DNA from: Candidatus Nanopusillus acidilobi
GTDB lineage: Archaea; Nanobdellota; Nanobdellia; Nanobdellales; Nanobdellaceae
Direction: 5' to 3'
Assembly (NCBI GenBank): GCA_001552015.1
Contig: CP010514.1
Location: 330,001-362,000, forward strand
DNA length: 32,000 nt
The notes under the pieces were generated by a model that was not told the origin of the DNA, searched no databases, and saw nothing but the letters and a program-made list of their open reading frames with translations. Within the stretch, counting starts at the first letter, position 1; every line of letters starts with the position of its first letter. Of this stretch, positions 2,898 to 30,643 are shown one piece after another. A program made the translations under genes and the position numbers.

Positions 2898-5800
2898 TTA
2901 TGAATAAAATAGTTCATAATTTCCAAATCCTTGTGGTATAAATGTATTATTTGTAGATATTATATTTCCATTACCTCCTACTATCTTTTCTACAATATAA
3001 CTAGTAGCAGATAATAGATTAATAAATGTAATATTTCCATTTATATTTCCTATTATTGATATTCCTTCATAATAATTATATAATGTGTTATTTACATTCG
3101 TACTAGATATTACACTACTTAAACTATTTATGAATCCTTGTGAATTATTATAATATACATTTACACTTCCTGTAGATGTTGTTAAATTATCTATATATCC
3201 ACTTCCATATATTTCAATACCTAATTGTGAATTATATAATGATATGTTTGTTGCATTACCTGTTAAATAATATCCAAATAATCCTCCATTTGTTGTTACA
3301 TTTATTATATTATTATAAGCAGTTTCATATAATCCAAATACCTGTCCTACTTTTATATAATCATTTTCTATATTATTTCCTGAAGATGTTAAATATATTC
3401 CAAATATATTTGATTCTATATTGTTATTTATTATATTATTATTATTTCCATTATTTATCTTTATTCCAAATATGTTAGATATTACATTACTATTTTCTAT
3501 TACATTATTTACTGCATTTCCATCAAAATCTATTCCAAATATTTGTCCATTTATATTTGAATTATTTATTATTACATTATATGGATTGTCATCATATATT
3601 CCCCATACTGATGATTGAATATTTGTATTTTCTATTGTTGAATTTTGTATATAACCATATATTCCTCCTATATTTCCATTTATTGTAGAATTATATACAT
3701 TTACTACTGATGGATTCTTTACATCTATTCCAAACAATCCTGAATTTATATTATCATTTATTAAATTAATAGTTCCATTTTCTACATTTATTGCAAATAG
3801 ATTTGTATTAATATTTATATTCTGTATTGTTACATTTGATGATAATACATCTATAACAGGTAATCCTGGATTTGCAGGTTCAAATATTGTATTTTGTCCT
3901 AATAATGTTATATTTTGACCTTGTGGGTTTATTATTAAGTTTACTAAATATACTCCTGGAGAGAATACTACTACAGGTATAGAACTATTAATTGCTGAAT
4001 CTATTATTCCTTGTATTTGTGTATTACTTAATGTTGGATTTATTACTGATACATTATATGCATTTTGTGATATATATATTACCTGGGGATTTGTATATTG
4101 ATTTAATCCATAATTATTATATGCATATACTTTATACCATATTGAATAATATCCATTACTATTTAATTTTGCATATTCTTGTAATATTCCATTATATAAT
4201 ATATCTGAACATGAATTAATTATTGTTACCCATTGATTACTTGTTTGATTTAATAATTGTATTTGACAATAATCTTGACCTAAAGTATTATCATATACAT
4301 TTGCACTAACTTCTAATAACCATATATTTTCTTGTGTACCATTTGATGGTGTAGGATATGTATATGATACATTAAATATTGGTGAAGGTAATGTATAAAC
4401 ATATATTCCTGTTGAATTTGTTATTCCCTCAGGATTCGATGTTGATAATTCTATTGTAATATTTCCTCCATTTGGTATAATATTATATAATCCTGGTAAA
4501 TTATATGATGAATTTTCATAATTTAATTGAATAATATTATTACCTGGTGTTACATTTATATTATATGTTTGTCCATTTATTGTTACATTTACATTTGGAT
4601 AATTTGTATAGAATGATATATTTAGTTGATAATAATTTGATACTGAATTATTAGATGGGGATATAATATATATTTGTGGATTAACTATAGGAATTATTGT
4701 AATTGTAGTAGAATTCGTAACTCCGTTTGATGCAACACCAGTTACTGTTACACTATAAGTACCTGGTTGTATATTACTATTTGCACTTACTGTTAATGTT
4801 ACTGATGCATTTGGAGTAACAGTAGTATTAGATAAGGAACATTGTAGATTTGAATTACTTGTTGAACAAGATAAAGTAATAGATGCAGGAGTTCCACCAC
4901 TTAGTTGGGTAATATTTATTATTGTAGAATTCGAAGAACCAGCATTTACATACATACTACTTGGTCCCTGTATTGAGAATGAATATGGCTGTACATTAAC
5001 TGTTATAGTAGTAGAATTCGTAACTCCATTTTGCGCTGTACCTGAAATTGTTACTGAATATGTTCCTGGAGTAATTGAAGATGAAGCAGTAACAGTTAAA
5101 GTTACTGATGCATTTGGAGTAGCTTGAGTACTTGATAGTGAACACGATAAATAACTACTATTTGTAGAACAAGATAAGCTAACTGGTAATGGAGATCCGC
5201 TATTTAATTGAGTAATATTAATTGTTGCCGAATTAGAAGAACCCACATATGTATTAATACTACTTGGTCCCTGTATTGAGAATGAATATGGCTGTACATT
5301 AACTGTTATAGTAGTAGAATTCGTAACTCCGTTTGATGCAACACCAGTTACTGTTACACTATAAGTACCTGGTTGTATATTACTATTTGCACTTACTGTT
5401 AATGTTACTGATGCATTTGGAGTAGCTTGAGTACTTGATAGTGAACACGATAAATAACTACTATTTGTAGAACAAGATAAAGTAATGGATAATGGGGACC
5501 CACTATTTAATTGATTTACATATATTGTTGTAGAATTACTATAATTTGTATAAACATCTATACTACTTGGTCCCTGTATTGAGAATGAATATGGCTGTAC
5601 ATTAACTGTTATAGTAGTAGAATTCGTAACTCCATTTTGCGCTGTACCTGAAATTGTTACTGAATATGTTCCTGGAGTAATTGAAGATGAAGCAGTAACA
5701 GTTAAAGTTACTGATGCATTTGGAGTAACAGTAGTATTAGATAAGGAACATTGTAGATTTGAATTACTTGTTGAACAAGAAAGAGTAACTGGCAAAGGTG

Positions 5801-6527
5801 TGTTTCCTGTTAATTGATTTACATATATTGTTGTAGAATTACTATAGTTTGTATAAACATCTATACTGCTTGGTCCTGTAATATCAAAAGTAAATACTGG
5901 AAATCCTAATACTAATGCAGAAACATATTCCGTTGATCCTGGACCAGGGCCAACGTTAAATGAAACACTATAAGTACCTGGAGCTAAATCTTTACATTCC
6001 GCAGCATATACACTTATTTGAGGTGAAGATGTTAAAAATAATTGAGAACATCCATTAGGTAATGTTACCCCACCAATATTACCTCCATTCTTTGTTCCTC
6101 CCGAGGATATTAATATTAATACTGTTTCATTTTGCCCTGAAACAGTATATGAAACTGTTACTGGACCTGGTCTATTATATGTATTTGTAAAAGTAGTTAA
6201 AATAACTGGAACAGAATAATTATTTATAGAAACTCCACCAATTGCATAATTATTAGCTGTAGTAGTAAATGAACAGGTATTTGTACTAGAATTTCCAATT
6301 ACTGCATAATTTCCATTATTTACCATTACATTAAAACTTGGAGTAAGGGTTGAACCTGCAGAAGAAGCAACACAATAATATATATTTGCTGTAGATAATG
6401 TTACACTCTTAGCTTGAGCACTATTACTTCCAACAACATCTGCTCCAACCTGTGAATATATATTAAATGTAGAAATTAACAATAGAAGGCTTACTATAGC
6501 AAAATATAATATTCTTTTTATTCCCAT
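2898..6527 (-). CDS. Large secreted surface protein: signal peptide, four 101-aa Ig-like tandem repeats and a C-terminal parallel beta-helix (candidate adhesin or S-layer-associated glycoprotein)
   Basis: 1209-aa ORF with an ATG start. N-terminus MGIKRILYFAIVSLLLLISTFNIYS is Sec-signal-like. Residues ~211-611 form 4 repeats. Residues ~905-1110 show a 20-23-aa periodicity (xFGIxx). Very many N-x-S/T sequons. Only 2 Arg, about 10 Lys and no His by my reading. Confidence 0.85.
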   Translation of the reverse strand: MGIKRILYFAIVSLLLLISTFNIYSQVGADVVGSNSAQAKSVTLSTANIYYCVASSAGSTLTPSFNVMVNNGNYAVIGNSSTNTCSFTTTANNYAIGGVSINNYSVPVILTTFTNTYNRPGPVTVSYTVSGQNETVLILISSGGTKNGGNIGGVTLPNGCSQLFLTSSPQISVYAAECKDLAPGTYSVSFNVGPGPGSTEYVSALVLGFPVFTFDITGPSSIDVYTNYSNSTTIYVNQLTGNTPLPVTLSCSTSNSNLQCSLSNTTVTPNASVTLTVTASSSITPGTYSVTISGTAQNGVTNSTTITVNVQPYSFSIQGPSSIDVYTNYSNSTTIYVNQLNSGSPLSITLSCSTNSSYLSCSLSSTQATPNASVTLTVSANSNIQPGTYSVTVTGVASNGVTNSTTITVNVQPYSFSIQGPSSINTYVGSSNSATINITQLNSGSPLPVSLSCSTNSSYLSCSLSSTQATPNASVTLTVTASSSITPGTYSVTISGTAQNGVTNSTTITVNVQPYSFSIQGPSSMYVNAGSSNSTIINITQLSGGTPASITLSCSTSNSNLQCSLSNTTVTPNASVTLTVSANSNIQPGTYSVTVTGVASNGVTNSTTITIIPIVNPQIYIISPSNNSVSNYYQLNISFYTNYPNVNVTINGQTYNINVTPGNNIIQLNYENSSYNLPGLYNIIPNGGNITIELSTSNPEGITNSTGIYVYTLPSPIFNVSYTYPTPSNGTQENIWLLEVSANVYDNTLGQDYCQIQLLNQTSNQWVTIINSCSDILYNGILQEYAKLNSNGYYSIWYKVYAYNNYGLNQYTNPQVIYISQNAYNVSVINPTLSNTQIQGIIDSAINSSIPVVVFSPGVYLVNLIINPQGQNITLLGQNTIFEPANPGLPVIDVLSSNVTIQNININTNLFAINVENGTINLINDNINSGLFGIDVKNPSVVNVYNSTINGNIGGIYGYIQNSTIENTNIQSSVWGIYDDNPYNVIINNSNINGQIFGIDFDGNAVNNVIENSNVISNIFGIKINNGNNNNIINNNIESNIFGIYLTSSGNNIENDYIKVGQVFGLYETAYNNIINVTTNGGLFGYYLTGNATNISLYNSQLGIEIYGSGYIDNLTTSTGSVNVYYNNSQGFINSLSSVISSTNVNNTLYNYYEGISIIGNINGNITFINLLSATSYIVEKIVGGNGNIISTNNTFIPQGFGNYELFYS
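3198..3815 (-). repeat. About ten degenerate 20-23-aa beta-helix coils (PbH1-like) in the surface protein
   Basis: Aromatic-Gly motifs recur every 20-23 residues: LFAINV, LFGIDV, IGGIYG, VWGIYD, IFGIDF, IFGIKI, IFGIYL, VFGLYE, LFGYYL, IEIYG. They are separated by Asn-rich turns. Confidence 0.6.
4695..5897 (-). repeat. Four tandem 303-bp (101-aa) coding repeats inside the surface-protein gene
   Basis: The string gaatatggctgtacattaac recurs at 4981, 5284 and 5587 (period 303). Stretch 4705-4818 is identical to 5311-5424 (114 nt, offset 606). About 70 nt from 4801 equals the stretch from 5710 (offset 909). Confidence 0.95.
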
Positions 6528-6600
6528 GAGATATTAGAAAACATTGCCCAATATAAAATTATGATTGTTAATAACCTTAATCATTTATGATAATCGAACC

Positions 6601-6674
6601 CGGGCCCGGGGGGATTCGAACCCCCGATCTTCGGGTTAAAAGCCCGACGCTTTACCAGACTAAGCTACGGGCCC
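6601..6674 (-). tRNA. tRNA-Lys (anticodon UUU)
   Basis: Folded by hand: GGGCCCG TA GCTT AGTCTGGTA AAGC G TCGGG CTTTTAA CCCGA AGATC GGGGG TTCGAAT CCCCC CGGGCCC G. Length 74 nt, no intron, no encoded CCA. Confidence 0.9.
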
Positions 6675-6718
6675 AACAATATTTAATTTATATTTATGAT
6701 TCTTATATAAATTTTTCA

Positions 6719-7405
6719 TTATCCATATAAAGATATATAGTTTATAGATCCATTGAAATATTGAAAATAATTTAAATATACTGTTGGATAAATATTCATT
6801 AATATGTTTGGAAGACCAACAATTTTATCCCCATTATACAAGTATAGTACTGTATTATAATTATTTATAATTAAGAATTTTTCATTTGTATTTATATAAA
6901 TACTAGAATTTCCAATTAAATTAAAATTACAATATAGGAAAGTTCTTGTATATACACTAAAAAATGAAGAACTTAAATAATTATCACAATTATAATATGC
7001 AGAATTGTTTGTTATATTAATATTTTGTGTTATTCCATATATATAAACTTGTAAAATAGATGATACATTTATATTAGAGTTCTGAATTATTTCTATATTG
7101 TTTGAACTCATATTATAAAAAAATTCTATACAATTATTACAAATGTATGAGTTTGTAGATAGAAATATAACATCTGGAGTATAATAATATGAAAAAGAAA
7201 AATTTGTATAATTATATACTATTTGTGGATCATAAAATTGAGAAAAATAAAAAGAACTGGTATATAATTTTTGATATTCAGATATTTTATATAATCCGGA
7301 AGAATATTGAGATAATCCATTGACTATATCTTGATACATATAAACTATAATGTATAAAAATACAGCAAGTGTAATCAATACCTCGATCCAGCTTTGAGAT
7401 TTCAT
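6719..7405 (-). CDS. Hypothetical pilin-like, N-anchored and sequon-rich extracellular protein
   Basis: 228 aa with an ATG start. The N-terminus [24 protein letters not shown] has a short basic leader, then a hydrophobic helix with Glu at +5 if cleaved after Ser3. At least 8 N-x-S/T sequons. ATGA overlap with the upstream platform gene (7402-7405). Confidence 0.6.
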
Positions 7406-8658
7406 ATTGTTACATTAATACTTTGTTTTTGTATATATTTTTTCCCATTATAATTTAATATTGCTTCTACAATATATGTACCAGTGCTATTTAATTCGAT
7501 AGACTGAGAATAATATCCATTCTGTAATATTTGAAAATTCTGGTAAACATAATTTCCAGCTGAATTTATTACATATATTGTTAATGGGGCATTTGTTATT
7601 GGTTGTGCATCAATATATCCATATACTTGTATATTTATTGGAGTATATACATAAGCAGTTGTTGGAAAAACTTGTAAATTAAATGATACAAAAGAGGGTA
7701 GAACAAAAATTACTATAGATAATAATCCTATTAAATTGTTTATTGCTAAATGTTTTACTGAAGATCTTAATTTTCCACTTTCAGCAATGCCCATTATAAT
7801 TGATGCTGAAATTCCTACCATAATTATTGATAAAGATGTAATAAACTTTAACCATGAATAATTTATTTGAGAAGAAAAGAAATTAAATGTTGTATGAATG
7901 GTAGAAACTGAAATTTGACTTATTATCAATGGTTTAATTGTATCTAATATAGAAATTGATAATCCAACAAATATAATGAATATAGCATATAAAACCAATA
8001 TTTGTTGTGATATATATGCTCTCTTTAGTCCATCCAATTCCTTTACGGACTCTAGATCATTATATAACCTTTTTAAAACCTTTGAAATATCACCCCCACC
8101 CTTATATGTTTCTAATATTACATAATTAATCATCTTTATATTTGGAAGTTCTTCAAAATACATATTAAATAGTGTAAATGCCTTTTCAAATGGCATACCC
8201 CAAGCAATCCAATTATATAATTTTTTAACTAAAATAGATAAATATCCTAAATCTACCGAAGATAGATATGCCAGAGCATCCAATAATGTCATTCCGGATG
8301 CTAAACTTTCAGATAAATAAGATAAAAAATATGTATAGTTATTAGATATATTTTCATATATTTTACTTTCAATATACTTGTAAAATAGGTATGGAACTCC
8401 TCCCACAAGATATATAACTATTATTAATATTGAAAGTGCTACATAATTTTCATATAATTTAAATATTATTCCAAATATTCCAATAATTGATGCAAACAAA
8501 ATAGATATATATAATATAAATCTATCTTCCTTAATATATGAACCAAAAACATTTATTTCTTTATAATGTAATGGATCCTTTATATTGAAAATTTGATCTA
8601 TAAATCTTTCAGTTAATCCTTTTTGATTTACCCCTTTATTATATGTATTAGTTATCAT
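7402..8658 (-). CDS. Single-domain T2SS-F/FlaJ/TadC-like polytopic membrane protein with an extra C-terminal beta-rich domain
   Basis: The ORF track starts it at 8682, but that codon is TTG; the first ATG is at 8658. Cytoplasmic helical domain LSESLASGMTLLDALAYLSS...ETYKGGGDISKVLKRLYNDLES is flanked by TM segments. The C-terminal ~90 aa (FPTTAYVYTPINIQVYGY...TYIVEAILNYNGKKY) look like a beta-sandwich. Confidence 0.7.
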   Translation of the reverse strand: MITNTYNKGVNQKGLTERFIDQIFNIKDPLHYKEINVFGSYIKEDRFILYISILFASIIGIFGIIFKLYENYVALSILIIVIYLVGGVPYLFYKYIESKIYENISNNYTYFLSYLSESLASGMTLLDALAYLSSVDLGYLSILVKKLYNWIAWGMPFEKAFTLFNMYFEELPNIKMINYVILETYKGGGDISKVLKRLYNDLESVKELDGLKRAYISQQILVLYAIFIIFVGLSISILDTIKPLIISQISVSTIHTTFNFFSSQINYSWLKFITSLSIIMVGISASIIMGIAESGKLRSSVKHLAINNLIGLLSIVIFVLPSFVSFNLQVFPTTAYVYTPINIQVYGYIDAQPITNAPLTIYVINSAGNYVYQNFQILQNGYYSQSIELNSTGTYIVEAILNYNGKKYIQKQSINVTI

Positions 8659-8675
8659 TATACTTTTAATTTTGG

Positions 8676-9542
8676 ATGTCAATATTTAAATATATGGTTA
8701 GTATATTTGATCAATTTTTTAGTGGTATAGAAAGGGATCTATTAATAATTAATTCTAAAGAAGATCCTTCTAAGTATATATATAAAGCTAAAATGTATTC
8801 AATAGGAATATCAATATCTGTATCAATATTAACATTCTTTTCCCTTTTAATGTATAATATAAAAGTATATGGATCTTTTAATCCAACTTTTCCAATAATA
8901 TTTGGAATACTTACTGGTATCGTAGGATTTTTTGGATCTTTATTTTTATTTAAAAAATATCCTTCAATAGAAAAACAAAATAGAGCTAAAAAAATAGATA
9001 ATTCTTTATATTATGCCGTATTATATATGGCTTCTTTAGTTTCTTCTGGTGCAACCCCAAAAGCATTATTCGAATTATTATCAAAATATAGCGAATTTTC
9101 AGAAATAAAAAAAGAAGCATCTGAAATAATATACTTAATAGATACTGTAGGGTTATCACTACCATTAGCATTAGAAAGAAAGGCGGAATATTCTCCATCA
9201 AAGAAATGGGCTTCAATATTAAATGGAATGAAATCAATAATAGTTGAGGGTGGAAATCTTGAGGAGTATTTATATAATGAAGCTGAGAAATTATTTGATG
9301 AATATAAAAGAAAAATAATAGAATATTCAAATAATATGCAAGTATTCTTAGAAATATATATAACATTAATAATTGTAGGAGTTATATTTGTAATTATATT
9401 AACTACATTGATGGGATCTATTTCTGGAACAAACTTTCAATACATAGAATTTATACAATTAATGAGTATATTAATAATATTGCCAATGGGTACAGTTATG
9501 TTTATTATATTACTAAAAGCAATTAGTCCATTTGAAACATAG
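8676..9542 (+). CDS. Single-domain T2SS-F/FlaJ/TadC-like polytopic membrane protein
   Basis: 288 aa with an ATG start. YYAVLYMASLVSSGATPKALFELLSKY...LPLALERKA...MKSIIVEGGNLEEYLYNEAEKL is the GspF/FlaJ-type cytoplasmic domain, flanked by TM helices. Confidence 0.75.
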   Translation: MSIFKYMVSIFDQFFSGIERDLLIINSKEDPSKYIYKAKMYSIGISISVSILTFFSLLMYNIKVYGSFNPTFPIIFGILTGIVGFFGSLFLFKKYPSIEKQNRAKKIDNSLYYAVLYMASLVSSGATPKALFELLSKYSEFSEIKKEASEIIYLIDTVGLSLPLALERKAEYSPSKKWASILNGMKSIIVEGGNLEEYLYNEAEKLFDEYKRKIIEYSNNMQVFLEIYITLIIVGVIFVIILTTLMGSISGTNFQYIEFIQLMSILIILPMGTVMFIILLKAISPFET

Positions 9543-9549
9543 TATAATT

Positions 9550-10212
9550 TTATCCTGCACTAATATTAAGATTATATATATTTAGAATATTCTGAATCAG
9601 TTGATTATCATTTATTACTTTAATTTCTCCATTTTCTAACCCATTTTTAATTATATCTACAAAATTTCCATTTTGATATTCTAAATAATTCAAAATTTTT
9701 TCAGATATTGAATATGAAAGATAGATTATCAATGTATTATTTATATTATTTATATATGAAATTGGTATGTTTGTAATTCCCTTACTAGTAAATACAAAGG
9801 CTCCACAAGAGTCATTTATACATAATATAAAAGAATATTGAGGATATATAATATTTAATTTTGTATAATATAATTCATAATTTTCCATATATAGAGAATT
9901 ATTTAATAAATAATCGTCTATTTCACTAATAAATTCTACAGAAGTATTTGAATTAGTAAAATTAAGATTTTTTTGATTAAGTACACCATTTATTGACATT
10001 TTAATTATATCATAAGTTGTTAAATTTAATCCATAATACCCAATTTCAGTTTCATTATCTGAAATATTATAAACATATGGTAATTTAAGAGAATATACTG
10101 GATAAAATAAATATCTATATATTATTGAAGCTAAAATCATAAAAATTGAAAATACTATTAAAAAAATCAAAATTTTATCTCTAATAGATGACTTCCTCAA
10201 TATTCCTCTCAT
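9550..10212 (-). CDS. Hypothetical N-terminally membrane-anchored protein
   Basis: 220 aa with an ATG start. MRGILRKSSIRDKILIFLIVFSIFMILASII is a signal anchor. The rest is Asn/Tyr/Ile-rich with several sequons. Its start overlaps the ndk 3' end by 32 nt. No family recognised. Confidence 0.55.
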   Translation of the reverse strand: MRGILRKSSIRDKILIFLIVFSIFMILASIIYRYLFYPVYSLKLPYVYNISDNETEIGYYGLNLTTYDIIKMSINGVLNQKNLNFTNSNTSVEFISEIDDYLLNNSLYMENYELYYTKLNIIYPQYSFILCINDSCGAFVFTSKGITNIPISYINNINNTLIIYLSYSISEKILNYLEYQNGNFVDIIKNGLENGEIKVINDNQLIQNILNIYNLNISAG

Positions 10213-11246: not shown

Positions 11247-11298
11247 ACTGTAAGTAATTGTAAAATAATTTTTAAATCTTTTATTAAAATATCTAAAA

Positions 11299-14200
11299 AT
11301 GACATCTGAAAATTCTAATTTAAATAATAATAAACAAGAAACAAAAGTTAATAGATTAAGAAAAATATTCTCATGGAATATACTAATAGATGTATTATTA
11401 ATTATATTTATATTCTTATTTACTTTGGGATCAAAAGGTTTATTACTTAATTTCTTAGGAAATTATTCTTTAGTAGGACCTGATGCATACTTAATGTTTA
11501 AATATTTTGAATCTTTAGTATTTAATCATACAGTAAATAGTTTTACATATAATTTAAATTATCCATTACCATTTTATTTATACAATAAAGATCTTGTATC
11601 ATATTTAGCATTTTTATCTTATTTGATGTTCCAAAACTTTGGTAATCAAATTATTGCATTATTAAATATTTTACAAATACATCCAGCATCAAATATTATT
11701 TTATGGTTAGCAGCAGACTTTACAAATGTATATGTTCCTGCAATTGCTTCAATTATATTTTATTTTTTAGCAAGGAATATATTCAAAGATAAATATTTAG
11801 CACTTTTTTCTTCTATGATTTTTGCTATAAATCCATTTTTGACAACAAGACTAATTTTATTTGATACTGAATTAGGAGCAATTATTTTCCTAGTATTATC
11901 TTTCTACCTTATAATTAAATACTTTAATGCAAAACCTGAGAATAATAAATACAAAAAATTATTCTTAATTCTTTATTCAATTATTAGCTTAATAATATTT
12001 TATAAAACATCTTTATTACCAAATCCAGATGTATATTTAACAATTGAATTATTTGTATTCTTCTTTATATTATTATTATTATATCCAGTATTCAAAGGAT
12101 CAAGAGCTTATTATTTAACATTATTAATATTTACTACTGCATTAACTAGAAAAGGATGGGGTGGATGGATAATAATACCAATTGTATTTGGTTTAACATT
12201 ATTAATTAGATATTTCTATGATAGAGATTATAAAGATATATATTTCTATTTACCATATATTGGATTTACTGGAATATTAGATAATTTATTAACACCTGGG
12301 GTTTTAGGAATTGGTTTATTTTTAAGTTATCACAATCTATTTTTAGAACTTTCAATGATTTTGATATTTTTATATGAAATATTAAAAGATAATAAAATAC
12401 TGGAAAAAATTACTGAAAGTAAAACATATCTGCTAATATTATCTATTTTGTCTGGATTAATCCCAGGAATACCTATATTCATTATAAATAAATATACTAA
12501 AGATAATAAATTACTAAAGAAATATACAATATTTCTAATAATCCTTATTATATCCTTACCATTTTTAATTGATAAATTAATTATATCTTTCTTATATAAT
12601 CCATTTACATATGCAAGAATGGGTTCTACAATTGCAGAATTTCAACCAACTACTGCAGGATATTATTTTGGTTTATTTGGACCAATTGGTTTAATATTAA
12701 CTTATTTGGGTCTTGGATATCTAATATTTGATAAAAATAAGTCTAAAAATCTTTTAATATCTGAATTTTTGTTTATATTTATATTAACTATATCGGAATT
12801 TCTTATTGGCCCATCTATATATCTTTTAACATTTTATCTATTAATTTATTCTATATTTATAATATCATATAATAAAGAAAGTAATATATATGATATTATA
12901 AAGACAATATTTGAAACATTTACATTATCAATTGCCATTCAATTTGTAATATTTTCAGATTTAGTAATTAATGGAATATATATAAGTATATTTATATCTT
13001 GGGTTACTTTTCTCATTTTAGCAGTCTATATTTCATTATTTAATAGAAATCTAAATGATGGAGAAATATTTGTATTATCATTATCATTTATAGCACTTAT
13101 TGTAGGAAAATATATATATGAATTAGTTTATTATAATGGTTTGGCTCTCCCATTATTATATATATTTGGTATAGAAATATTCAATTTATTTAAAGATGAA
13201 TTTTCCAAATTAAAGAATATTATAAAAGAAAATTTAATATTAATATTATTATTAATTTCATCTATTTCAGGAATATCTCTATTTATATCAACAAACATAT
13301 TCTTATTCTTAATTCCACTGATATTTTTAGCAATATATATTTTATATGAATATATATTAGATAAGAATTTGGACCTATTTAATTTATTTAAATATAGTTT
13401 AATTTTATTTACAATATTTGGTCCTTTATTTTCTATAAGCAATAAAATCTATGGATATCCTGGATATATAGCAAACTATTTTTCAAGTGCTGGTCAATAT
13501 GGAACTCCAGATTATGAAATAAATACTTTCTTATGGATAAGTCAAAATACTCCACAAAATTCTATTATAAATTCTTGGTGGGATTATGGATATTATATTT
13601 ATGTATTGGGAAATAGAACTGCATGGATAAATGGTGCAAATGCATATCCATATTGGAATCATTTAATGGGTAGATATGGTTTATCTTCAGATAATATAAC
13701 ACAAACATTACAATTATTCTATGTACATGCAGATTATAATTATCAAACATTTAAAACATTGGAATTATTCAATGAAAATTCAATATTCTATAATTATTTA
13801 TATAAATATTTGGGATTTAATGAAAGTGAAGTAAATGAAATTGAAGAATTAAAAGATTCCTTAGGATATAAAAATTGGATAAATCTATTATATCAATTTA
13901 ATGGATCTCCAGAATCAATTTCATCATATAACTTATCTCAACAAGATATAGAACTATTAGAAAAATTGTATAATATGAATTATTTGAAACCAGCATATTT
14001 ATATATAGATCCTACAGATATAGGAAAATCCTTTGCTTTCCAATTTTTAGGATCAAATGAAAGTTATGATAAAGAATCATGGATATCTCAATTTGCATCT
14101 GGAACAACAGAAAATCCGGGACCAACAATACCTTCAGTATATTATGATGGATATTATATATTTGCAACAAATAATAGTTTATTCTACTTTGGTCAAGAAC

Positions 14201-14877
14201 CATTGGATCAAGATTTGAATATTAATGGAACTATAATAAATAGATGCATATATGTACAGAACCAGGGTATAATTAACCAAAATAGTTGTGGAATAATAAC
14301 TGGAGTCCAATTATTATTTAATCAATCTATAGTAGAAAGATCTGGAATATATCAGACATTAAATATAGATAATATTAATCCAGATAATTTAATAGGGGCA
14401 TATGTATATATTTATTATCCATTAAATAATCAACAATATTCACTTTCATTAAAATATATAGATATTGATGGACAATTGATTACATTTAATAATTCTCAAT
14501 ATGATGGATTATTATATATAACCCCAGATTACTCATTATTACAGCAAAATAATCCATTAGGATTGTTCTTATATGCATATTTTATATCACAAAAAGCTAC
14601 CCAATATGATTGGGTACAATTATATTTCTTAAACAATGATTATAATGGAACATTTAATCCTGTATTTTATTCAAATGAATTATATAGCCTTCCTTCAATA
14701 ATATATTATGATATTCCTCCAGCAAAAGTATGGAAAATTAATTTCCCAGAGAACTTCACAGTTCCAGATTATTTATATTGTATCTATCTAGCAACAAATA
14801 TTCAACAAATAAATGAATGTGGAAAAATATATAATTTAGCCTATTATGAAAATATGAAAAATTATTATGATGTATGA
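11299..14877 (+). CDS. aglB: Archaeal oligosaccharyltransferase AglB (STT3 family), unusually long
   Basis: 1192 aa. WWDYG lies at residues 760-764 (nt 13576-13590). An acidic EL1-like motif [11 protein letters not shown] sits near residue 60. The polytopic N-terminal region is about 750 aa. Confidence 0.9.
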
Positions 14878-15877
14878 AGAAATTTTAATTGCTGTATTAC
14901 CACTAATATTGTCTTTTTTTGTTTCATATTATTTAATAAAAAAATGGATACCAATTGCTCATAAAGAAGGATATATAGGAAAAGATATGAATAAGTATAA
15001 TAAACCTGAAGTAGCAGAAATTGGTGGTTTATATGCAATAATTGGTACAATATTTGGAATATTATTATATATTGGATTAAAAGTATATATATTAGGAACT
15101 ACAGAAGATTTAGTAGAAGTATTTTCAATATTAACATTATTATCATTAACTACAATATTAGGATTATTTGACGATATATTAGGATGGAAAAAAGGATTGA
15201 AACCTTTACATAGAGTAATTCTATCATTTATATTAGCACTACCATTAATGATAATATCTGCAGGTAATTCATATATTAATTTACCATTTGTAGGAGAAGT
15301 AAATTTTGGAATATTATATCCACTATTAATAGTACCAATTGCAATAATGGGTACATCAAATGCATTTAATATGCTTGCTGGATATAATGGTTTGGAAGGA
15401 TCTATGGGTATTTTACTAATTGGTGCAATAGGATTAGAGTCATATTTAATTGGTAATTATTATTTAGCAGAAATATCATTAATAACAATATTTTCAATAA
15501 TAGCATTTCTAATATTTAACTGGTATCCAGCAAAAGTATTTCCTGGAAATGCATTTACATATGGTATTGGATCTCTATTTGGTGCAATAGTAATATTAGG
15601 AAACCTTGAAAAATTTGGACTAATTTTGTTTACATTATATTTCTTGGAATTGATATTATTTATAAGAGGACTATTAAATCATATATACAAAGAAAACTTT
15701 GGAATACCTGATGAAAATAATAATCTAAAAGAACCATATGATAAAACATATAGTGTTACTCATCTTGCAATTAAAATAAATAGAAAGATATTTAAGAAAG
15801 CAACAGAGAAAATGGTGGTATATACAATAATTTTACTACAAATAATAATAACAATAATAGCTTTTATATATGGATAA
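14867..15877 (+). CDS. Dolichyl-phosphate HexNAc-1-phosphate transferase (Alg7/AglH type, Glycos_transf_4 family)
   Basis: 336-aa polytopic protein. Motifs LFDDILGW and NAFNMLAGYNGLEGS (eukaryal/archaeal GPT-type N-x-x-N-x-L-A-G-x-N-G-L-E). Overlaps aglB by 11 nt. Confidence 0.8.
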   Translation: MMYEEILIAVLPLILSFFVSYYLIKKWIPIAHKEGYIGKDMNKYNKPEVAEIGGLYAIIGTIFGILLYIGLKVYILGTTEDLVEVFSILTLLSLTTILGLFDDILGWKKGLKPLHRVILSFILALPLMIISAGNSYINLPFVGEVNFGILYPLLIVPIAIMGTSNAFNMLAGYNGLEGSMGILLIGAIGLESYLIGNYYLAEISLITIFSIIAFLIFNWYPAKVFPGNAFTYGIGSLFGAIVILGNLEKFGLILFTLYFLELILFIRGLLNHIYKENFGIPDENNNLKEPYDKTYSVTHLAIKINRKIFKKATEKMVVYTIILLQIIITIIAFIYG

Positions 15878-17660
15878 CTTAATCTATATCTTTTTTAATA
15901 AAGATACAAGAAAATTAATTTACAATATTAAAATATTATATAATTTCTGCCAAAAAAATAATTTAAATCTAATTTGTATAACTTATAAGAAATATAAAGA
16001 TATAGCATTAAAAATAAAAGAAAATTATAATTTAACATTTTATCTATTAGAAAATAAAAAAGAAATTAGAAAATTAAAAATTGAAGGAAATAATATAATA
16101 ATATACAATAATATAAATAAAAATATATATGATATATATAGAAAAAGAAAATTTATAGATAATCTTATTGGTTTAATAAGAGAGAATTTCCTAATTTTCA
16201 ATTTAATAAACCCATATATAATATTTGGAAAAAACATTAGAATATATGAAAATTTTTTATTAACATATTTAGGAAATAAAAAATTCTATATAGATGAAAG
16301 ATATAAAATTAACAAATTTTTCTTAGAAGAATTATTTATTAATTTAATAATATATTATGATAAAATAATTAAGACTTTTAATAAAATATTGAATCTAAAA
16401 TATTTCAAAGATTATATACATGAAAAAATAGGATTAATAACATATAAAGCTATCACTTTTTTATTATTAGTAATTTTAGCTAGAATATTAACAGATACAT
16501 TCTATGGAGCATATGTATCAATATATAATTTTTTAGGATTGATTGCTGGAATAATAGGATCCTCAAATATAATATTAACAAAATATTTATCCGAATATAA
16601 AGATAATAAATATATTAAAATTGATATATATCTAAAAATTATTTTTTCATTATTTATCCTTCTAATTATTTTCATATTTCCAAATTATTTCTTATCTACA
16701 ACTTTCTATGGATATAATTTTATAGATGTTTTAATCATATACATAACTGCAATATTATTATCTTTAATCGGAGTTTATTTTTCTATATTTTATTCGCAAT
16801 TAAATATAGAATCTGCTAAAAATCTATACATATTAGAAGCTTTACTTAAATTTATTTTCATAGTTTCTTTAACAATCATAATAAGGAATACTGGTTTTAT
16901 ATTTGGTTTATTTTTAACCTATTTTATTTTAAGTTTTGTTTATCTTTATAAATTAAAGAAAAATAAAATTAATTTTGTATCAATATTAAAAGAAAAAATT
17001 AATTTTAATGATTTTAAAAAATATCTAAAATCTACCATACTTATTAGTCTGCCAGTAACTTTACTAGGTTTATATTCTTCAATAGATATACAAATATTAA
17101 GAACATTTACAAGCTATAATATAGTTGGAGAATTTTATTCTGCATTAGTAATTGTCTATACATTATCTGGAATATTCACTATAGGTAATATAACATTACC
17201 AAGAATATTAAGATGGGAAAAAGAAAAAGTTATTAGAAACATAAATAGATTAATATTAATACAATTTCTAATTAACATTATATTAACTGGATTAATAATA
17301 TTAATTGGTCCTTATATAATACTAATTATATTTGGAAAAAATTATCAATTATCAGCAAATATAATAAAATATCTTTCCATTATTTTAATAATAAATTCTT
17401 TGAATGTATATAACTTAATATTATATAGAAGGGATATGGAAAAATATTATCCAATATATGCAATAACAACTGCTCTACTTTCAATAATTACAGATATTAT
17501 ATTGATATCAAAATTTAAATTATCTGGAGCAATTGCTTCAGCAATATTAGCAAATACATATATTGGACTAATAAGTTATATTATATATGAAACAAAATTC
17601 AATAATATCCCTTCCAGATCTATTTTTAGATATAATTACAAAGAAAATAGATATAAATAA
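15870..17660 (+). CDS. Wzx/MOP-type oligosaccharide flippase-like membrane protein with an unknown ~190-aa soluble N-terminal domain
   Basis: 596 aa. Residues ~190-596 contain about 12 hydrophobic segments and start like polysaccharide-biosynthesis (Wzx) proteins (ITFLLLVILARILTDTFYGAYVSIYNFLGLI). The N-terminal part is Lys/Asn/Ile-rich with no motif I recognise. Confidence 0.55.
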   Translation: MDNLIYIFFNKDTRKLIYNIKILYNFCQKNNLNLICITYKKYKDIALKIKENYNLTFYLLENKKEIRKLKIEGNNIIIYNNINKNIYDIYRKRKFIDNLIGLIRENFLIFNLINPYIIFGKNIRIYENFLLTYLGNKKFYIDERYKINKFFLEELFINLIIYYDKIIKTFNKILNLKYFKDYIHEKIGLITYKAITFLLLVILARILTDTFYGAYVSIYNFLGLIAGIIGSSNIILTKYLSEYKDNKYIKIDIYLKIIFSLFILLIIFIFPNYFLSTTFYGYNFIDVLIIYITAILLSLIGVYFSIFYSQLNIESAKNLYILEALLKFIFIVSLTIIIRNTGFIFGLFLTYFILSFVYLYKLKKNKINFVSILKEKINFNDFKKYLKSTILISLPVTLLGLYSSIDIQILRTFTSYNIVGEFYSALVIVYTLSGIFTIGNITLPRILRWEKEKVIRNINRLILIQFLINIILTGLIILIGPYIILIIFGKNYQLSANIIKYLSIILIINSLNVYNLILYRRDMEKYYPIYAITTALLSIITDIILISKFKLSGAIASAILANTYIGLISYIIYETKFNNIPSRSIFRYNYKENRYK

Positions 17661-20494: not shown

Positions 20495-20965
20495 TTATAA
20501 AAATAATTCATTTATTTCATAATAAACTATATCATTTTCTATATCAATTATTGCCAATAAAATTTTATTTAAATTCTTTGAATCCATGAAATTTAAAATA
20601 TCTTTAATGTATAGAAATTCATTTTCATATATTGGATAAACATAATATAATATCTTTTCTTTTTTATAATCTGTATATAAAATAATTGAGTCATTTTCTG
20701 TATCTAGATAATGTCCTTTATTTCTTAAATCTTCAAATACATAAAATTTCTTCATATTTAATATATTTTTATATTTTTTAATAAAATCTAAAAAATTATT
20801 TATTCCTTCTAATTTTATCCATCCTTTTTTTATACAATATAAAGCCTCTTCAGGTTCTAAAATAATGTAATCTTTATCCATCTTTCCAATTCTTCCTATT
20901 TTATCATAAAACTCTTTATTTAAAATAAATTTATTATTAAATTCTCTAACTAAAATTTTTTCCAT
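20495..20965 (-). CDS. tRNA splicing endonuclease, structural (beta) subunit
   Basis: 156 aa. EndA-like YVFEDLRNKGHYL and C-terminal ILLAIIDIENDIVYYEI, but no catalytic His/Lys pattern. Overlaps the alpha subunit gene by 16 nt. Confidence 0.65.
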   Translation of the reverse strand: MEKILVREFNNKFILNKEFYDKIGRIGKMDKDYIILEPEEALYCIKKGWIKLEGINNFLDFIKKYKNILNMKKFYVFEDLRNKGHYLDTENDSIILYTDYKKEKILYYVYPIYENEFLYIKDILNFMDSKNLNKILLAIIDIENDIVYYEINELFL

Positions 20966-21378
20966 CTTATTTCTAGAAATCTATAATTATTATTATCCTT
21001 TACACAATATAAAATTCTTTTTCTAGTGCTATGTGCAACTCTATTTTTTGCTAAAAAATCATATATATCTATTTTTTCATTAATATTTATTGGAATAGCA
21101 ACCCATTTTGAATGTTGCTTAATATCTTCATATATTCTAAATATACCACCAAATTTTAATCCTGTACCTAAATAATAACCTCTCTCTCTAAAATATTTAT
21201 ATATATCATAATATAACTTAATTTTTTCATCTTTTAAAAAATAATTTATATCTAATTTATTATTTTTCTCATCATAAACTTCAATTTCATTTTTTTCTAA
21301 TAAATATAAAACTTCATAGAAATATAAAATCTTATCTTCTGATAAAAATACATTATCTTTATATAATACTCTTTTCAT
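20950..21378 (-). CDS. endA: tRNA splicing endonuclease, catalytic (alpha) subunit
   Basis: 142 aa. YKYFRERGYYLGTGLKFGGIFRIYEDIKQHSKWVAIPI...RVAHSTRKR contains the Tyr/His/Lys catalytic pattern of EndA. Confidence 0.8.
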   Translation of the reverse strand: MKRVLYKDNVFLSEDKILYFYEVLYLLEKNEIEVYDEKNNKLDINYFLKDEKIKLYYDIYKYFRERGYYLGTGLKFGGIFRIYEDIKQHSKWVAIPININEKIDIYDFLAKNRVAHSTRKRILYCVKDNNNYRFLEIRWKKF

Positions 21379-21518: not shown

Positions 21519-22370
21519 TTAGCTTCCCCCTAGAGAAACCACTGATTGAGATAGAACAGCTGGTATAGCCCCACCATATTGCGATGTATATCCATTTACT
21601 GGTGTTATTTGTATATTATAATTTTCATTTACTGATAATCCACTAGGTAGATAATACATTATCTCATATAATTCTCCAGTTGTTAAATATACATTTTCCT
21701 GACTTATAGATAATCCAATTATTGCATATGGATTTTGAATTCCAGCTTCATTCATTGATTGCAATATTTGGAATACTTGATTTATACTTAATGGATATCC
21801 AATTATTGAAGAATTTAATCCTATTGTACATGAAACTAAAGTTCCATTTACATATGTAAAGTTTGTATATATATACTGATTTGTGAAATTATTTAATGCA
21901 GAACATACCTGTGAATCATTTATTGTTACATTTTGTACATTTACTTGGTTATCAAACATAAATCCTGTTATTATAAAGCTTCCTCCTTGTAATACACCAT
22001 ATATTGCTGTAGGTTCATATTGGGAAGGTGCATATGAATATACATCTCCATTGCTATCTGTAATTAAAGTACTTACATATTCAAAATTAATTGGATTAGA
22101 ACCTGGCATTAATGATACAACAGGTCCTAAGGCGGTTATTTTTTGTAAATAATTATTTAGTTGACCACTTGATGGATCATATTGATATCCAAATACTTGT
22201 GTAATTTGCATACCTGTTGTTATTCTTTGTTCAGCTTGCGCACCTGTTTGTAATGCTTTTGATTGTAAAGAACTTGCTGTATATATTATTACACCAGCTG
22301 CTACTGCTGCCGTTACTATTATTGCTATTAATATAATTAATGTTGACAAACCAAACTGTGCCCTTACCAT
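21519..22370 (-). CDS. arlB: Archaellin (archaeal flagellin, FlaB/ArlB family)
   Basis: 283 aa. The N-terminus MVRAQFGLSTLIILIAIIVTAAVAAGVIIYTASSLQSKALQTGAQAEQRITTGMQITQVFG is the canonical archaellin class-III signal plus hydrophobic helix. Confidence 0.85.
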   Translation of the reverse strand: MVRAQFGLSTLIILIAIIVTAAVAAGVIIYTASSLQSKALQTGAQAEQRITTGMQITQVFGYQYDPSSGQLNNYLQKITALGPVVSLMPGSNPINFEYVSTLITDSNGDVYSYAPSQYEPTAIYGVLQGGSFIITGFMFDNQVNVQNVTINDSQVCSALNNFTNQYIYTNFTYVNGTLVSCTIGLNSSIIGYPLSINQVFQILQSMNEAGIQNPYAIIGLSISQENVYLTTGELYEIMYYLPSGLSVNENYNIQITPVNGYTSQYGGAIPAVLSQSVVSLGGS

Positions 22371-23566: not shown

Positions 23567-24184
23567 CTATTGATATGCTTGATAGCCTAAAGAACTACAT
23601 GATGAATAACCTGTATTTGGATTTACAGAACATTGCATTATATCATAATATTGAGTTGGTGGGATTACTACTCTAAATCCCATTTGTAAATTACTTACAG
23701 AATAATTTATTGTTGCATTTAAACATGGTCCTCCAATAATTGTTAAATTAACATTTGCTACCGATTGTGCTGGTATTGCTTGTCCATAACTTAATGTTTC
23801 ATTATATGTTGCATCATATACAGATTCTGCTATACCAATATTTGCAGCATCAGCTACACTTTCAAATACTGGAGTTGTACATATTACATCACCATTTGGA
23901 GTTGTAAAGTCAATAAACCATCCATTTAATGGTATATCTGTTGGTCCTAAATTATATAATGTAAATGTAACTGTTGCTACACTTCCATATTCAGAATATT
24001 CAACATCATGAATTGTAAATTGTGGTACTGCAGATTGTTGTTGATTTAATTGCAATTTTGTAATTGAATATCCAGCACTTTTTAAATAAACATCAACAAG
24101 GATATATGTACTTATTGCAGCTAATGCAACCAAAAATATAAACAAAAAAATTGATTGAAAGGCTTGTCCTTTCATTTTAGCCAT
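23567..24184 (-). CDS. Archaellum accessory (ArlF/ArlG-like) or minor pilin-like protein
   Basis: 205 aa. MAKMKGQAFQSIFLFIFLVALAAISTYIL is a class-III-like leader plus TM helix. It is followed by a beta-rich domain (VATVTFTLYNLGPTDIPLNGWFIDF) resembling FlaF/FlaG. An alternative start at Met4 (24175) would remove the 8-nt overlap. Confidence 0.45.
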   Translation of the reverse strand: MAKMKGQAFQSIFLFIFLVALAAISTYILVDVYLKSAGYSITKLQLNQQQSAVPQFTIHDVEYSEYGSVATVTFTLYNLGPTDIPLNGWFIDFTTPNGDVICTTPVFESVADAANIGIAESVYDATYNETLSYGQAIPAQSVANVNLTIIGGPCLNATINYSVSNLQMGFRVVIPPTQYYDIMQCSVNPNTGYSSCSSLGYQAYQ

Positions 24185-24770
24185 ATAATATTACTGTTGG
24201 ATATATCATTGCTGCCGGAGTTACACCTGATAGATCATATGGTTGTCCATTTGGTGGTATTACAGAGAATTCCCATGTTTGTGATGTTCCTAATGATACA
24301 TTAGCATATACTAATAGTGCTGCCAAATCATTTGGTCCCAATACTCCATTGTATAATAATCCTGAATTATCTACTGAATCATGTTGATCAATATAATAAT
24401 ATCCTGTATATCCTGTTACTAATGAAGAGTTTGCTACAGCTCCTCCATATGCAAATATTTCTCTACCAGCTGGAGAATAGAATATTACTGCTGTTTGATT
24501 GAATAATATTGGCTGTGATCCTGGTGCTAATCTTGTATATACTAAGAATTCTTGTACTGCTTGTGATGATGTATTAACATTTATACCTTCTACTCTTACA
24601 ATTTCTACAGTTGTACCAGATGTTTGTACTGTTTGTTGTGCTGCAGCTGCTGCATGTCCTTGTGCACTAGTTGTTGCTCCAATAATTACTAATGCTGCTA
24701 TTGCTGCTGTCAATGCTGCTGCTATAAATAATACCATTGCTGAAAAACCAGATCCTCCTTGACCTTTCAT
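24177..24770 (-). CDS. Short archaellin-family protein
   Basis: 197 aa. MKGQGGSGFSAMVLFIAAALTAAIAALVIIGATTSAQG...TVEIVRVEGINV...VYTRLAPGSQPILFNQTAVIFY follows the archaellin N-terminal helix and first beta-strands. Confidence 0.7.
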   Translation of the reverse strand: MKGQGGSGFSAMVLFIAAALTAAIAALVIIGATTSAQGHAAAAAQQTVQTSGTTVEIVRVEGINVNTSSQAVQEFLVYTRLAPGSQPILFNQTAVIFYSPAGREIFAYGGAVANSSLVTGYTGYYYIDQHDSVDNSGLLYNGVLGPNDLAALLVYANVSLGTSQTWEFSVIPPNGQPYDLSGVTPAAMIYPTVILYG

Positions 24771-28829: not shown

Positions 28830-30602
28830 CTAAAGTAAATAATATCTTAATTTCATATCAAGAGATTTCAATAATTTTTGATCATCCACAAAAACTATAG
28901 ATAGTCCCTTTGATATTCCTCCAGAATATAATCTAGAAGTTCTTCCAGAAGCTTGTAAATATGTTTTAAGATCTACAATATTTAAATATATATTTTTATT
29001 TTCATCTATTTCTACAGAAACATCTGGATTTTCTTTTAATTTATCTAATATTTCTGACTTATCAAGATAAATTTTTAAGATATTGTATAATGTTAATATA
29101 TCATCAGCAAAGGTTTTTATATATCCGACTAATTCAACTTTATTTCCATTTAAAAAATCAGAAATTAATTTCAGATCTCCAGAAGATAGCTTTTTCATAT
29201 TTTTTCTTAATCTTGTAAGAATTCTTGTTATTCTATTTTTTTCTATCTCAGATATATATGGTAAAATTAAATTAGATAAAATAATTATATTCGTTATATT
29301 TTTCTCAAGATTTGTAATATTTATTTTTATCTTTGGTATACCCAAAAATATTGCATATTTTATTCTTTCTGGCATATTAATCCCTCTAGTTAATATTCCA
29401 TATGGATCTGCGATACTAATTAAGAAATTTATTTTTCCCTCATAAAAATCATTTAATATATTCTCAATTTCTCTTGCCTTTGTTTTTGAATATATTAAAC
29501 CAACTTTTATATTATTTGATATTAAATAATTGTAAATTTCTATCATATATTCTACCCCTTTCTCTTTTGGAACAAATATTAATGCCCCATCTTCTAATTC
29601 TTTTAATAGATTCAATAATTCTTCTTTTATATCTCTCCTTGGAATATAATATACATCTACAACATTCCTAATTTTTGAACTTCCAGTTCCAATGGTAAAG
29701 TTAGCCAGCTCCCTATATAATCTAACTCTTTTTCCTCTTAAACTACCAGTAGCTGAAGATAAAACAATTATTCCATGATTTTTATTTTTAATTTCTAAAA
29801 ACTTTTTATATAAATCACTATTAAAATCTAATTTACCAGCTAATTTTAAATCTATTACTTTTTTAGCAACATTTATATCATCTTCGCTATAACCAATTAA
29901 AACAAATAATTTTTCAATATTTTTTGATCCTTTAAAAAAAGAATCTACATCATCTACAAAAGCAATATCAAATTTTTTATCTTTTAATATTTCAAAATTT
30001 TTAGTTAAAAATTGATTTGAAATAATTAATATATTAAATTCACCATTTTTTATTTTTTCCTTAATTTCTTTTTTATTACCACCATAATATGCTATAAACT
30101 TTATATTTAGATTTAGACTACTTATAAATTTATCAAACAAATCGCTAAATTGCTTTACAAGCAATCTTGTTGGTAATATTATTAGTATCTTTTTGTTGTA
30201 CTCACTAGAAAAGTAAATAGAAGAAACTATAATAAATGTTGATTTTCCAACACCTGTTGGCGCTATCATAGAAAAACTATTGTTTTTATATAATCTTTCA
30301 AACCACATTATTTGTACTTTCCATGGATTAGAATTTAATAATTTTTTAAAAAATTCAGAAAATTTAGTAATTTCTTTATATAAATTATAAATATTTGAAT
30401 AATCTTTTAATTTCCCCTTTTCAGATAATTTTTTATATAGAAGCTCTCTAAAAGTGTTTTCATCCTTTATATTTAATAATTCTAATATTTCTTTATCATC
30501 TAAATCATTTTCACAAGGAAGACCATTTGAAAGCCTATAGGAAGAAATTGTACCATTACAATTAAAGCATAAATTTTTTATATATAAAGGAATATATTCC
30601 AT
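28830..30602 (-). CDS. rgy: Reverse gyrase, helicase-like N-terminal part only (split reverse gyrase subunit)
   Basis: 590 aa. N-terminal Zn-finger-like CFNCNGTISSYRLSNGLPC, then motif I APTGVGKST, motif II FVDDVDSF, motif III SSATGS and motif VI QASGRTSRL. The ORF ends about 40 aa after motif VI, and no Toprim/topo IA domain follows. Confidence 0.85.
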   Translation of the reverse strand: MEYIPLYIKNLCFNCNGTISSYRLSNGLPCENDLDDKEILELLNIKDENTFRELLYKKLSEKGKLKDYSNIYNLYKEITKFSEFFKKLLNSNPWKVQIMWFERLYKNNSFSMIAPTGVGKSTFIIVSSIYFSSEYNKKILIILPTRLLVKQFSDLFDKFISSLNLNIKFIAYYGGNKKEIKEKIKNGEFNILIISNQFLTKNFEILKDKKFDIAFVDDVDSFFKGSKNIEKLFVLIGYSEDDINVAKKVIDLKLAGKLDFNSDLYKKFLEIKNKNHGIIVLSSATGSLRGKRVRLYRELANFTIGTGSSKIRNVVDVYYIPRRDIKEELLNLLKELEDGALIFVPKEKGVEYMIEIYNYLISNNIKVGLIYSKTKAREIENILNDFYEGKINFLISIADPYGILTRGINMPERIKYAIFLGIPKIKINITNLEKNITNIIILSNLILPYISEIEKNRITRILTRLRKNMKKLSSGDLKLISDFLNGNKVELVGYIKTFADDILTLYNILKIYLDKSEILDKLKENPDVSVEIDENKNIYLNIVDLKTYLQASGRTSRLYSGGISKGLSIVFVDDQKLLKSLDMKLRYYLL

Positions 30603-30643
30603 ATTTTCTTTTATTTTAAAAATTAATTTAAAAATATTCTATT

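Follow-up and report, generated by a model that had tools for sequence, protein, structure and literature searches.

Probable halves of a type IV pilus-like platform encoded head-to-head in the Nanopusillaceae

Two adjacent genes of Candidatus Nanopusillus acidilobi, here called A and B, each encode a protein with a single T2SSF domain and diverge from a single point within a 32,000-nt stretch of contig CP010514.1 (assembly GCA_001552015.1, positions 330,001 to 362,000 of the forward strand; hereafter the window, to which all positions refer). We consider it likely that A and B each supply one half of an inner-membrane platform belonging to a type IV pilus-like machine which is common in DPANN archaea and is not the archaellum, and that their layout arose through an in-place inversion in the ancestor of the Nanopusillaceae. 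The window has a base composition of ~23% GC and contains the archaeal markers aIF5B, S28e, L24e and L44e, a two-gene tRNA-splicing endonuclease and a reverse-gyrase helicase half with a zf_Rg domain, and the nearest kin of the A and B proteins are found in Nanopusillus, Nanobsidianus stetteri Nst1, Nanobdella aerobiophila and other Nanopusillaceae.

Gene A lies on the minus strand (7402..8658) and codes for 418 amino acids (aa) from a conserved ATG at 8658, its longest open reading frame (ORF) being 7402..8682 (426 aa, from TTG 8682). Gene B lies on the plus strand (8694..9542) and codes for 282 aa from a conserved ATG at 8694, its longest ORF being 8676..9542 (288 aa, from ATG 8676). As the original prediction had proposed from these two longest ORFs, the genes stand head-to-head and each holds one T2SSF domain (Pfam PF00482, gathering cut-off 25.2 bits), which scores 50.9 bits in A and 58.8 bits in B. 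The best-matching stretch covers residues 119-245 of the 426-aa ORF of A, equivalent to 111-237 of the 418-aa protein (7948..8328, minus strand), and residues 116-242 of the 288-aa ORF of B (9021..9401, plus strand). Within the genus, dN/dS values of ~0.09-0.2 for A and ~0.1-0.2 for B show purifying selection on both. Models built with AlphaFold2 (AF2) had confidence values (pLDDT) of 86 for B and 80 for A. The ten best PDB folds for the cytoplasmic domain of B were all EpsF, the PilC N-domain or OutF (TMt 0.64-0.74). The AF2 model of A is helical across residues 44-319, and Foldseek searches with this model, dominated by its C-terminal beta-sandwich, returned no T2SSF structures. The EpsF/PilC-like helical-bundle fold with flanking transmembrane helices is thus found in the model of B and is only predicted for A.

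The half that each protein represents was read from alignments to the two-domain models of NCBIfam. B matches the N-terminal half of five ArlJ/UpsF/BasF models, including ArlJ NF004704 (positions 22-248 of 555), NF004705 (2-173 of 465) and NF004703 (27-207 of 525) and UpsF (21-241 of 484), and A matches the C-terminal half of ArlJ NF004705 (188-453 of 465), such that the two jointly span the ArlJ model end to end, ArlJ models being the top-scoring named ones. The same pattern of N-half and C-half was obtained for the co-oriented gene pair of an outgroup locus (L005), whose second T2SSF gene additionally matches UpsF (259-408 of 484) and is matched by A in BLASTP (1e-27). Pairwise comparison of A with B gave no significant similarity. 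Since A and B align to different halves, they are, as judged from these alignments, complementary halves and not paralogues. The expectation that they would correspond to different halves of an ArlJ-type platform was upheld, B taking the N-half and A the C-half, and the same-half alignment that would have spoken for paralogues was not seen. The scores against the ArlJ equivalog models of NCBIfam fall far under the cut-offs (55.1 vs 400 bits and 93 vs 550 bits), from which it follows that neither gene is ArlJ. No match of A or B to the TadB/TadC-type models of NCBIfam was found at E <= 1. PDB sequence searches with the single proteins A and B returned nothing, and profile searches of the PDB, which gave a weak PilC match for A and composition-driven coiled-coil matches to coronavirus spike, were uninformative on halves.

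The arrangement was then compared across related loci. A scan of one genome per species gave 77 loci, to which six context loci fetched earlier and the window were added, and the A-like, B-like and ATPase genes were placed in them by tblastn. The divergent arrangement was present in 15/15 Nanopusillaceae loci (a count in which the window is included and some fetches overlap on the same contig) and only there, with no ATPase gene within 8 kb in any of them, whereas all 67 loci outside the Nanopusillaceae, from the Aenigmatarchaeota, the Woesearchaeota and other Nanoarchaeia, the Undinarchaeota, Naiadarchaeum, the Nanohalarchaeota and the Micrarchaeota, carry two separate but co-oriented genes. 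The order T2SSE ATPase, N-half, C-half is kept in 61 of the 67 co-oriented loci. Two adjacent single-T2SSF genes hold in 82 related loci, and no fused two-domain T2SSF ORF was found in the fetched loci. The outgroup ATPases carry T2SSE and PilB3_C domains and small pilin-like genes flank the cluster; identity to the outgroup orthologues is 30-40% for B and 23-32% for A. Because two genes are present in all co-oriented outgroup loci, the two-gene state predates the divergence of these DPANN lineages, and on this distribution the split is old and not local, only the inversion being specific to the Nanopusillaceae lineage. The head-to-head arrangement is not a matter of chance, as it recurs in all 15 Nanopusillaceae loci. 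The proposal that a gene had been split and one half then inverted is accordingly retained for the inversion, the outgroups being co-oriented and the Nanopusillaceae divergent, but not for a split within this lineage, given that all 67 outgroup loci already have two genes. Its premise that archaeal platforms are normally a single two-domain chain is true of ArlJ only, two-gene platforms having been described in archaeal type IV pilus loci and in Epd/Tad systems.

The gene that follows A gives a second view of the rearrangement. Directly 3' of A, and overlapping it by 4 nt, lies a pilin-like gene of 228 aa (6719..7405, minus strand), which given this overlap is probably co-transcribed with A. 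A pilin-like gene directly follows A in 14/15 Nanopusillaceae loci, that is, in every one which reaches that far. The 228-aa protein opens with a short charged segment that gives way to a hydrophobic one, resembling a class III (prepilin-type) signal peptide with Glu at +5 if cleavage occurs after G/S. We regard the protein as a candidate minor pilin. In three outgroup loci (L023, L024 and L033, whose proteins begin MKGQTWIEFI...), the gene next in line behind the A-like gene also bears the motif K(G/S)Q(S/T)WIE(F/V) with a hydrophobic stretch behind it, and KGQxxxEF is found at that position in many Aenigmatarchaeota and other DPANN loci. The 228-aa protein can be aligned to these outgroup counterparts at its N-terminus only, the link being one of motif and position, and iterative searches with the 228-aa protein and with a 220-aa neighbour of B recovered homologues within the Nanopusillaceae only. 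As the pilin-like gene keeps its place after A, the two form a retained block, and a single in-place inversion of B is enough to give the present layout; the loss of linkage to the ATPase gene is an additional event, apart from the inversion of B.

Two other accounts of the pair can be judged against these alignments and gene orders. The proteins could be paralogous TadC copies, duplicates of one unit that might serve two pilus systems, an idea to which the shared Pfam domain, the several ATPases of Nst1 and a weak match between the profile of A and the first domain of bacterial PilC all lend something. We hold it to be very unlikely, given the distinct best matches to N-half and C-half, repeated in the co-oriented orthologues, the lack of pairwise similarity between A and B, and the adjacent pair in fixed order in 67/67 loci. 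The history implied by the original prediction, in which a two-domain ArlJ/PilC-type gene was split in the Nanoarchaeota, like reverse gyrase, before one half was inverted, is very improbable. It would suit the complementarity of the halves, a group known for its split genes and the presence of a reverse-gyrase half in this same window, but it is at odds with the two-gene state of every outgroup DPANN locus, none of them fused, and with published lists of nanoarchaeal split genes, from which the pair is missing. An identity of A and B as a split ArlJ is ruled out by the sub-cut-off equivalog scores together with the intact, separate 549-aa FlaJ of the sister organism Nst1, whose genome also encodes three clade-2, one clade-3 and one clade-4 ATPase (PMC4858521 supplement).

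The point of divergence was examined in an alignment of eight species-level Nanopusillaceae loci. ATGs equivalent to 8658 and 8694 are present in all eight, and ATG 8676 and TTG 8682 are usable in the genus Nanopusillus/Nanobsidianus only, having no counterpart in YN1, Nanobdella, two KM4331 metagenome-assembled genomes and a JGI contig. In those five, the stretch from the preceding in-frame stop to the conserved ATG has no start codon, save for one non-homologous TTG in Nanobdella. The homologue lengths are nearly all 281-282 aa for B, and 418-421 aa for A. The (nearly) overlapping starts of the original prediction came from taking the longest ORFs; the conserved starts at 8658 and 8694 instead leave a spacer of 35 bp (8659..8693). 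An Rfam scan of the window found four tRNAs only, none of them in this spacer. Eleven loci have a spacer of 35 bp and two a slightly longer one (37-38 bp), and within the genus it differs at 0-2 positions out of 35 bp vs 9-21% at third codon positions. Across the eight aligned species the spacer reads CAT-TATAYTTTTAWTTT, ~8 variable bases, AATATTTAAATAT-ATG, with invariant columns in both A/T boxes and variation in the flanking codons.

The spacer is predicted to be a compact divergent promoter region. The TATA-like box TTTTAATT (8664..8671, plus strand), centred 26.5 nt upstream of ATG 8694, is the predicted promoter of gene B, and the TATA-like box TTTAAATA (8683..8690, minus strand), centred 28.5 nt upstream of ATG 8658, that of gene A. 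The latter forms the core of the palindrome ATATTTAAATAT at 8682-8693, which is nearly invariant across the family. Palindromy was rejected as evidence in its own right, the number of perfect 12-nt palindromes in the window (45, vs 33.8 +/- 6.4 in shuffles) not being enriched beyond composition. TATA-like 8-mers across the window peak at -32 to -25 from ATGs, and box A of N. equitans, TTTAAA, is located 26-27 nt upstream of mapped transcription starts (PMC3491384). Two further divergent pairs in the window are similarly built: S28e and a 1192-aa gene are separated by a 52-bp spacer (11247-11298) with one central TTTAAAAA/TTTTTAAA box ~26 nt from both ATGs, apparently a single shared bidirectional TATA box, and the reverse-gyrase helicase half and GINS by a 41-bp spacer (30603-30643) whose boxes are crossed and lie at -30 to -23. 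Judged by these 41- and 52-bp spacers, the spacing of A and B is normal for the genome, and the promoter layout is not peculiar to this pair. The simplest reading would be one of crossed TATA boxes giving two leaderless mRNAs, each box lying beside the start codon of the partner gene. An earlier view of the palindrome as the TATA box of the minus-strand gene agrees with its place and conservation, but it lies in the spacer and not in codons 3-6 of B, and the accompanying claim that each promoter must sit inside the coding sequence of its partner falls away, as both boxes fit into the 35 bp left by the conserved starts.

How the two starts relate to these boxes admits other interpretations. A true 5' overlap, with ATG 8676 paired with TTG 8682 or ATG 8658 and promoters inside the coding sequence of the partner, would be compatible with ORFs that are open to ATG 8676 and TTG 8682, with the occurrence of ATG 8676 throughout the genus loci and with the 288 aa given by some gene callers. 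It is nonetheless improbable: five other family members have no counterpart of either codon, the extra residues are not conserved, the conserved TATA-like boxes stand ~-27 from 8658 and 8694, which is the usual distance in this genome, and ATG 8676 follows its box by only 5-12 nt. A more elaborate reading of the 35-bp spacer regards it as a minimal quasi-symmetric bidirectional unit, CAT-TATA(C)-TTTTAATT ... TATTTAAA-TAT-ATG, acting as a dedicated switch that balances the two halves. Were this so, each pre-initiation complex would occupy the start site of the partner gene, transcription of the N-half and of the C-half with the pilin-like gene would be mutually exclusive at any moment, and a single factor could switch or balance them. 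With B uncoupled from the ATPase operon, one N-half might also serve several ATPase/C-half modules, and five secretion ATPases are on record for Nst1 vs four FlaJ/TadC homologues reported for Nanoarchaeota, the latter from a different population (PMC6142677). We regard such a switch as unlikely.

Several points weigh against the preferred interpretation of A and B as inverted halves of a pilus platform with facing promoters. ATG 8676 is kept in all eight genus loci (the window and seven relatives), and a 288-aa form of B may exist within the genus. A matches one ArlJ model only and its profile weakly matches the first domain of bacterial PilC (E = 3.5e-4), so that its assignment as the C-half draws on that one direct match, on the C-half matches of its L005 orthologue (ArlJ, UpsF) and on collinearity. 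The scan of loci was pattern-based and could miss a paralogous co-oriented locus in the Nanopusillaceae. No ATPase, prepilin peptidase or obvious major pilin adjoins A and B in the window, for which reason orthology is the only basis for naming the system they serve; the 32 kb were found to contain no T2SSE and no KaiC-like gene, and the cognate ATPase in Nanopusillus was not identified, no dedicated search for it having been made. Finally, promoter function and leaderless mRNAs are predictions from sequence only.

In the DPANN relatives the operon comprises pilin genes, a PilB3-type ATPase, the N-half, the C-half and pilin-like genes, and the platform is already divided between two genes there, on the interpretation we favour through an ancient fission like those reported for Epd/Tad and for numerous archaeal pilus loci. 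The Nanopusillaceae ancestor would then have undergone a single in-place inversion that turned B to face A, with A keeping its downstream pilin-like gene, and the ATPase gene would have become separated from the locus, as expected in heavily rearranged genomes. A and B would be made separately, B alone from one leaderless mRNA and A with the pilin-like gene from a second, both driven from the spacer by boxes ~27 nt upstream of their own ATGs. After translation the two proteins may pair in the membrane as a pseudo-symmetric heterodimer, the equivalent of two-domain PilC/ArlJ, which could couple an ATPase encoded elsewhere to pilin assembly.

The closest known counterparts are the co-oriented DPANN loci, which share the orthologous N-half and C-half and the pilin-like gene directly after the C-half and which look similar to archaeal type IV pili of the PilB3-type 'clade 2' (Makarova et al. 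2016, PMC4858521), a likeness that stems only from the PilB3_C domain of the outgroup ATPases. They differ in running on one strand behind the ATPase gene, whereas in the window the N-half is inverted and no ATPase is found within 8 kb. Many archaeal type IV pilus loci contain two tadC-like genes (PMC4858521), and an old fission is also the source of the paired single-domain genes in Epd-like and Tad systems, where the N-half is the counterpart of TadC and the C-half that of TadB (Denise et al. 2019, PMC6668835). B is accordingly TadC-like and A TadB-like, and the bacterial TadB/TadC and Methanococcus Epd systems likewise use two single-T2SSF proteins as two halves, but in tandem and co-oriented with the ATPase, unlike the divergent A and B. 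The platform pair of the Methanococcus Epd pili is EpdJ/EpdK. ArlJ/FlaJ, by comparison, is a single chain of ~550 aa with two domains, whereas A and B have one domain each and no arlI/arlH neighbours. Nanoarchaeota have been described as possessing two type IV pilus systems and an archaellum (PMC6142677). The split genes of the Nanoarchaeota (reverse gyrase, GatE and others; Podar et al. 2013, PMC3655853) resemble A/B in yielding two polypeptides that would have to assemble after translation, in genomes that tolerate scattered halves. Other archaea, however, have those genes in one piece, the division being confined wholly or mainly to the Nanoarchaeota, whereas A/B are split throughout DPANN and still adjacent; the A/B pair does not appear in the published table of nanoarchaeal split genes (PMC3655853).

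Gene A further codes for a C-terminal all-beta domain (residues ~324-417; 7408..7689, minus strand), the strands of which (324-417) are modelled by AF2 with pLDDT 85-92 and in Foldseek match the MG domain of alpha2-macroglobulin (2p9r, TMt 0.73) and CARDB structures (3idu/2kl6). This extension aligns in the A-like genes of five other loci (L021, L023, L024, L028 and L033); a C-half beta-sandwich is common to the A-like genes of Nanoarchaeia/Woesearchaeota (377-388 aa) and absent in those of the Aenigmatarchaeota (~305-320 aa). From the helix count and the positive-inside rule the beta-sandwich of A is predicted to face the cell exterior, where platform proteins of pili do not usually carry a domain.

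Beyond B, a gene on the minus strand (9550-10212) encodes the 220-aa protein mentioned above, which has one N-terminal membrane helix and is confined to the Nanopusillaceae. It closes an S28e-L24e-NDK string, shares 32 nt with the end of the NDK gene and converges on B, its end lying 7 bp from the B stop codon. On the other side, just beyond tRNA-Lys (6600-6675), a minus-strand gene (2898-6527) encodes a Ser/Thr/Asn-rich protein of 1209 aa with a signal-like N-terminus, tandem Ig-like repeats of ~100 aa (PYSFSIQGPSS at residues 312, 413 and 514) and a repeat region at the C-terminus that resembles a beta-helix. This gene occurs only in Nanopusillus/Nanobsidianus loci, with variable repeat content, and YN1 and L003 have no such gene between the pilin-like gene and the NTP-transferase gene. 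Two Aenigmatarchaeota loci (L037 ~3236-4564 and L079 ~5987-7315) have ~1.3 kb of extra sequence inside the pilus ATPase gene, at the point matching residue 433 of the L005 ATPase, after which homology resumes in register; the insertion is probably an intein.

Elsewhere in the window, two archaellin-family genes lie on the minus strand (21519-22370, 283 aa; 24177-24770, 197 aa), and both lengths equal those of Nst1 archaellins in Makarova et al. (PMC4858521). The end of the second is overlapped by 8 nt by a 205-aa gene that has no family match (23567-24184, minus strand), and tRNA genes and unrelated genes lie between the archaellin genes, such that there is no classical arl cluster. Two adjacent genes (20495-21378, minus strand) carry tRNA-intron endonuclease domains. 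A helicase with a reverse-gyrase zinc finger and without the topoisomerase part is encoded at 28830-30602 (minus strand) and corresponds to the helicase half of reverse gyrase, an enzyme known to be split in Nanoarchaeota (PMC3655853). The 1192-aa gene (11299-14877, plus strand) encodes a multi-pass membrane protein with no Pfam match at E <= 0.001 that contains SWWDYGYYI, presumably the WWDYG motif of AglB/STT3 oligosaccharyltransferases. It is followed by a GT4 glycosyltransferase gene and a Polysacc_synt flippase-like gene (14867-17660), and the region 11299-17660 is probably an N-glycosylation cluster.

Taken as a whole, A and B are an ordinary two-gene T2SSF platform of archaeal type IV pili with a lineage-specific change in gene order. 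We found no description of the divergent arrangement in the literature; it has no demonstrated functional consequence and uses the usual promoter architecture of the genome, and beyond tidy annotation, with the likely start codons corrected to 8658 and 8694, it matters little. A two-gene T2SSF platform of N-half and C-half is the rule across DPANN archaea, and the Nanopusillaceae, in which the halves lie on separate, facing transcription units away from the ATPase gene, offer natural cases without need for co-translation from one operon. The spacer would be a compact, conserved case of crossed archaeal promoters, with 35 bp shared by divergent, putatively leaderless genes. Obligate ectosymbionts such as these may use type IV pili to attach to their hosts, and a FlaJ/TadC homologue was flagged as fast-evolving in a population study (PMC6142677), which makes the identity of the platform genes useful background.

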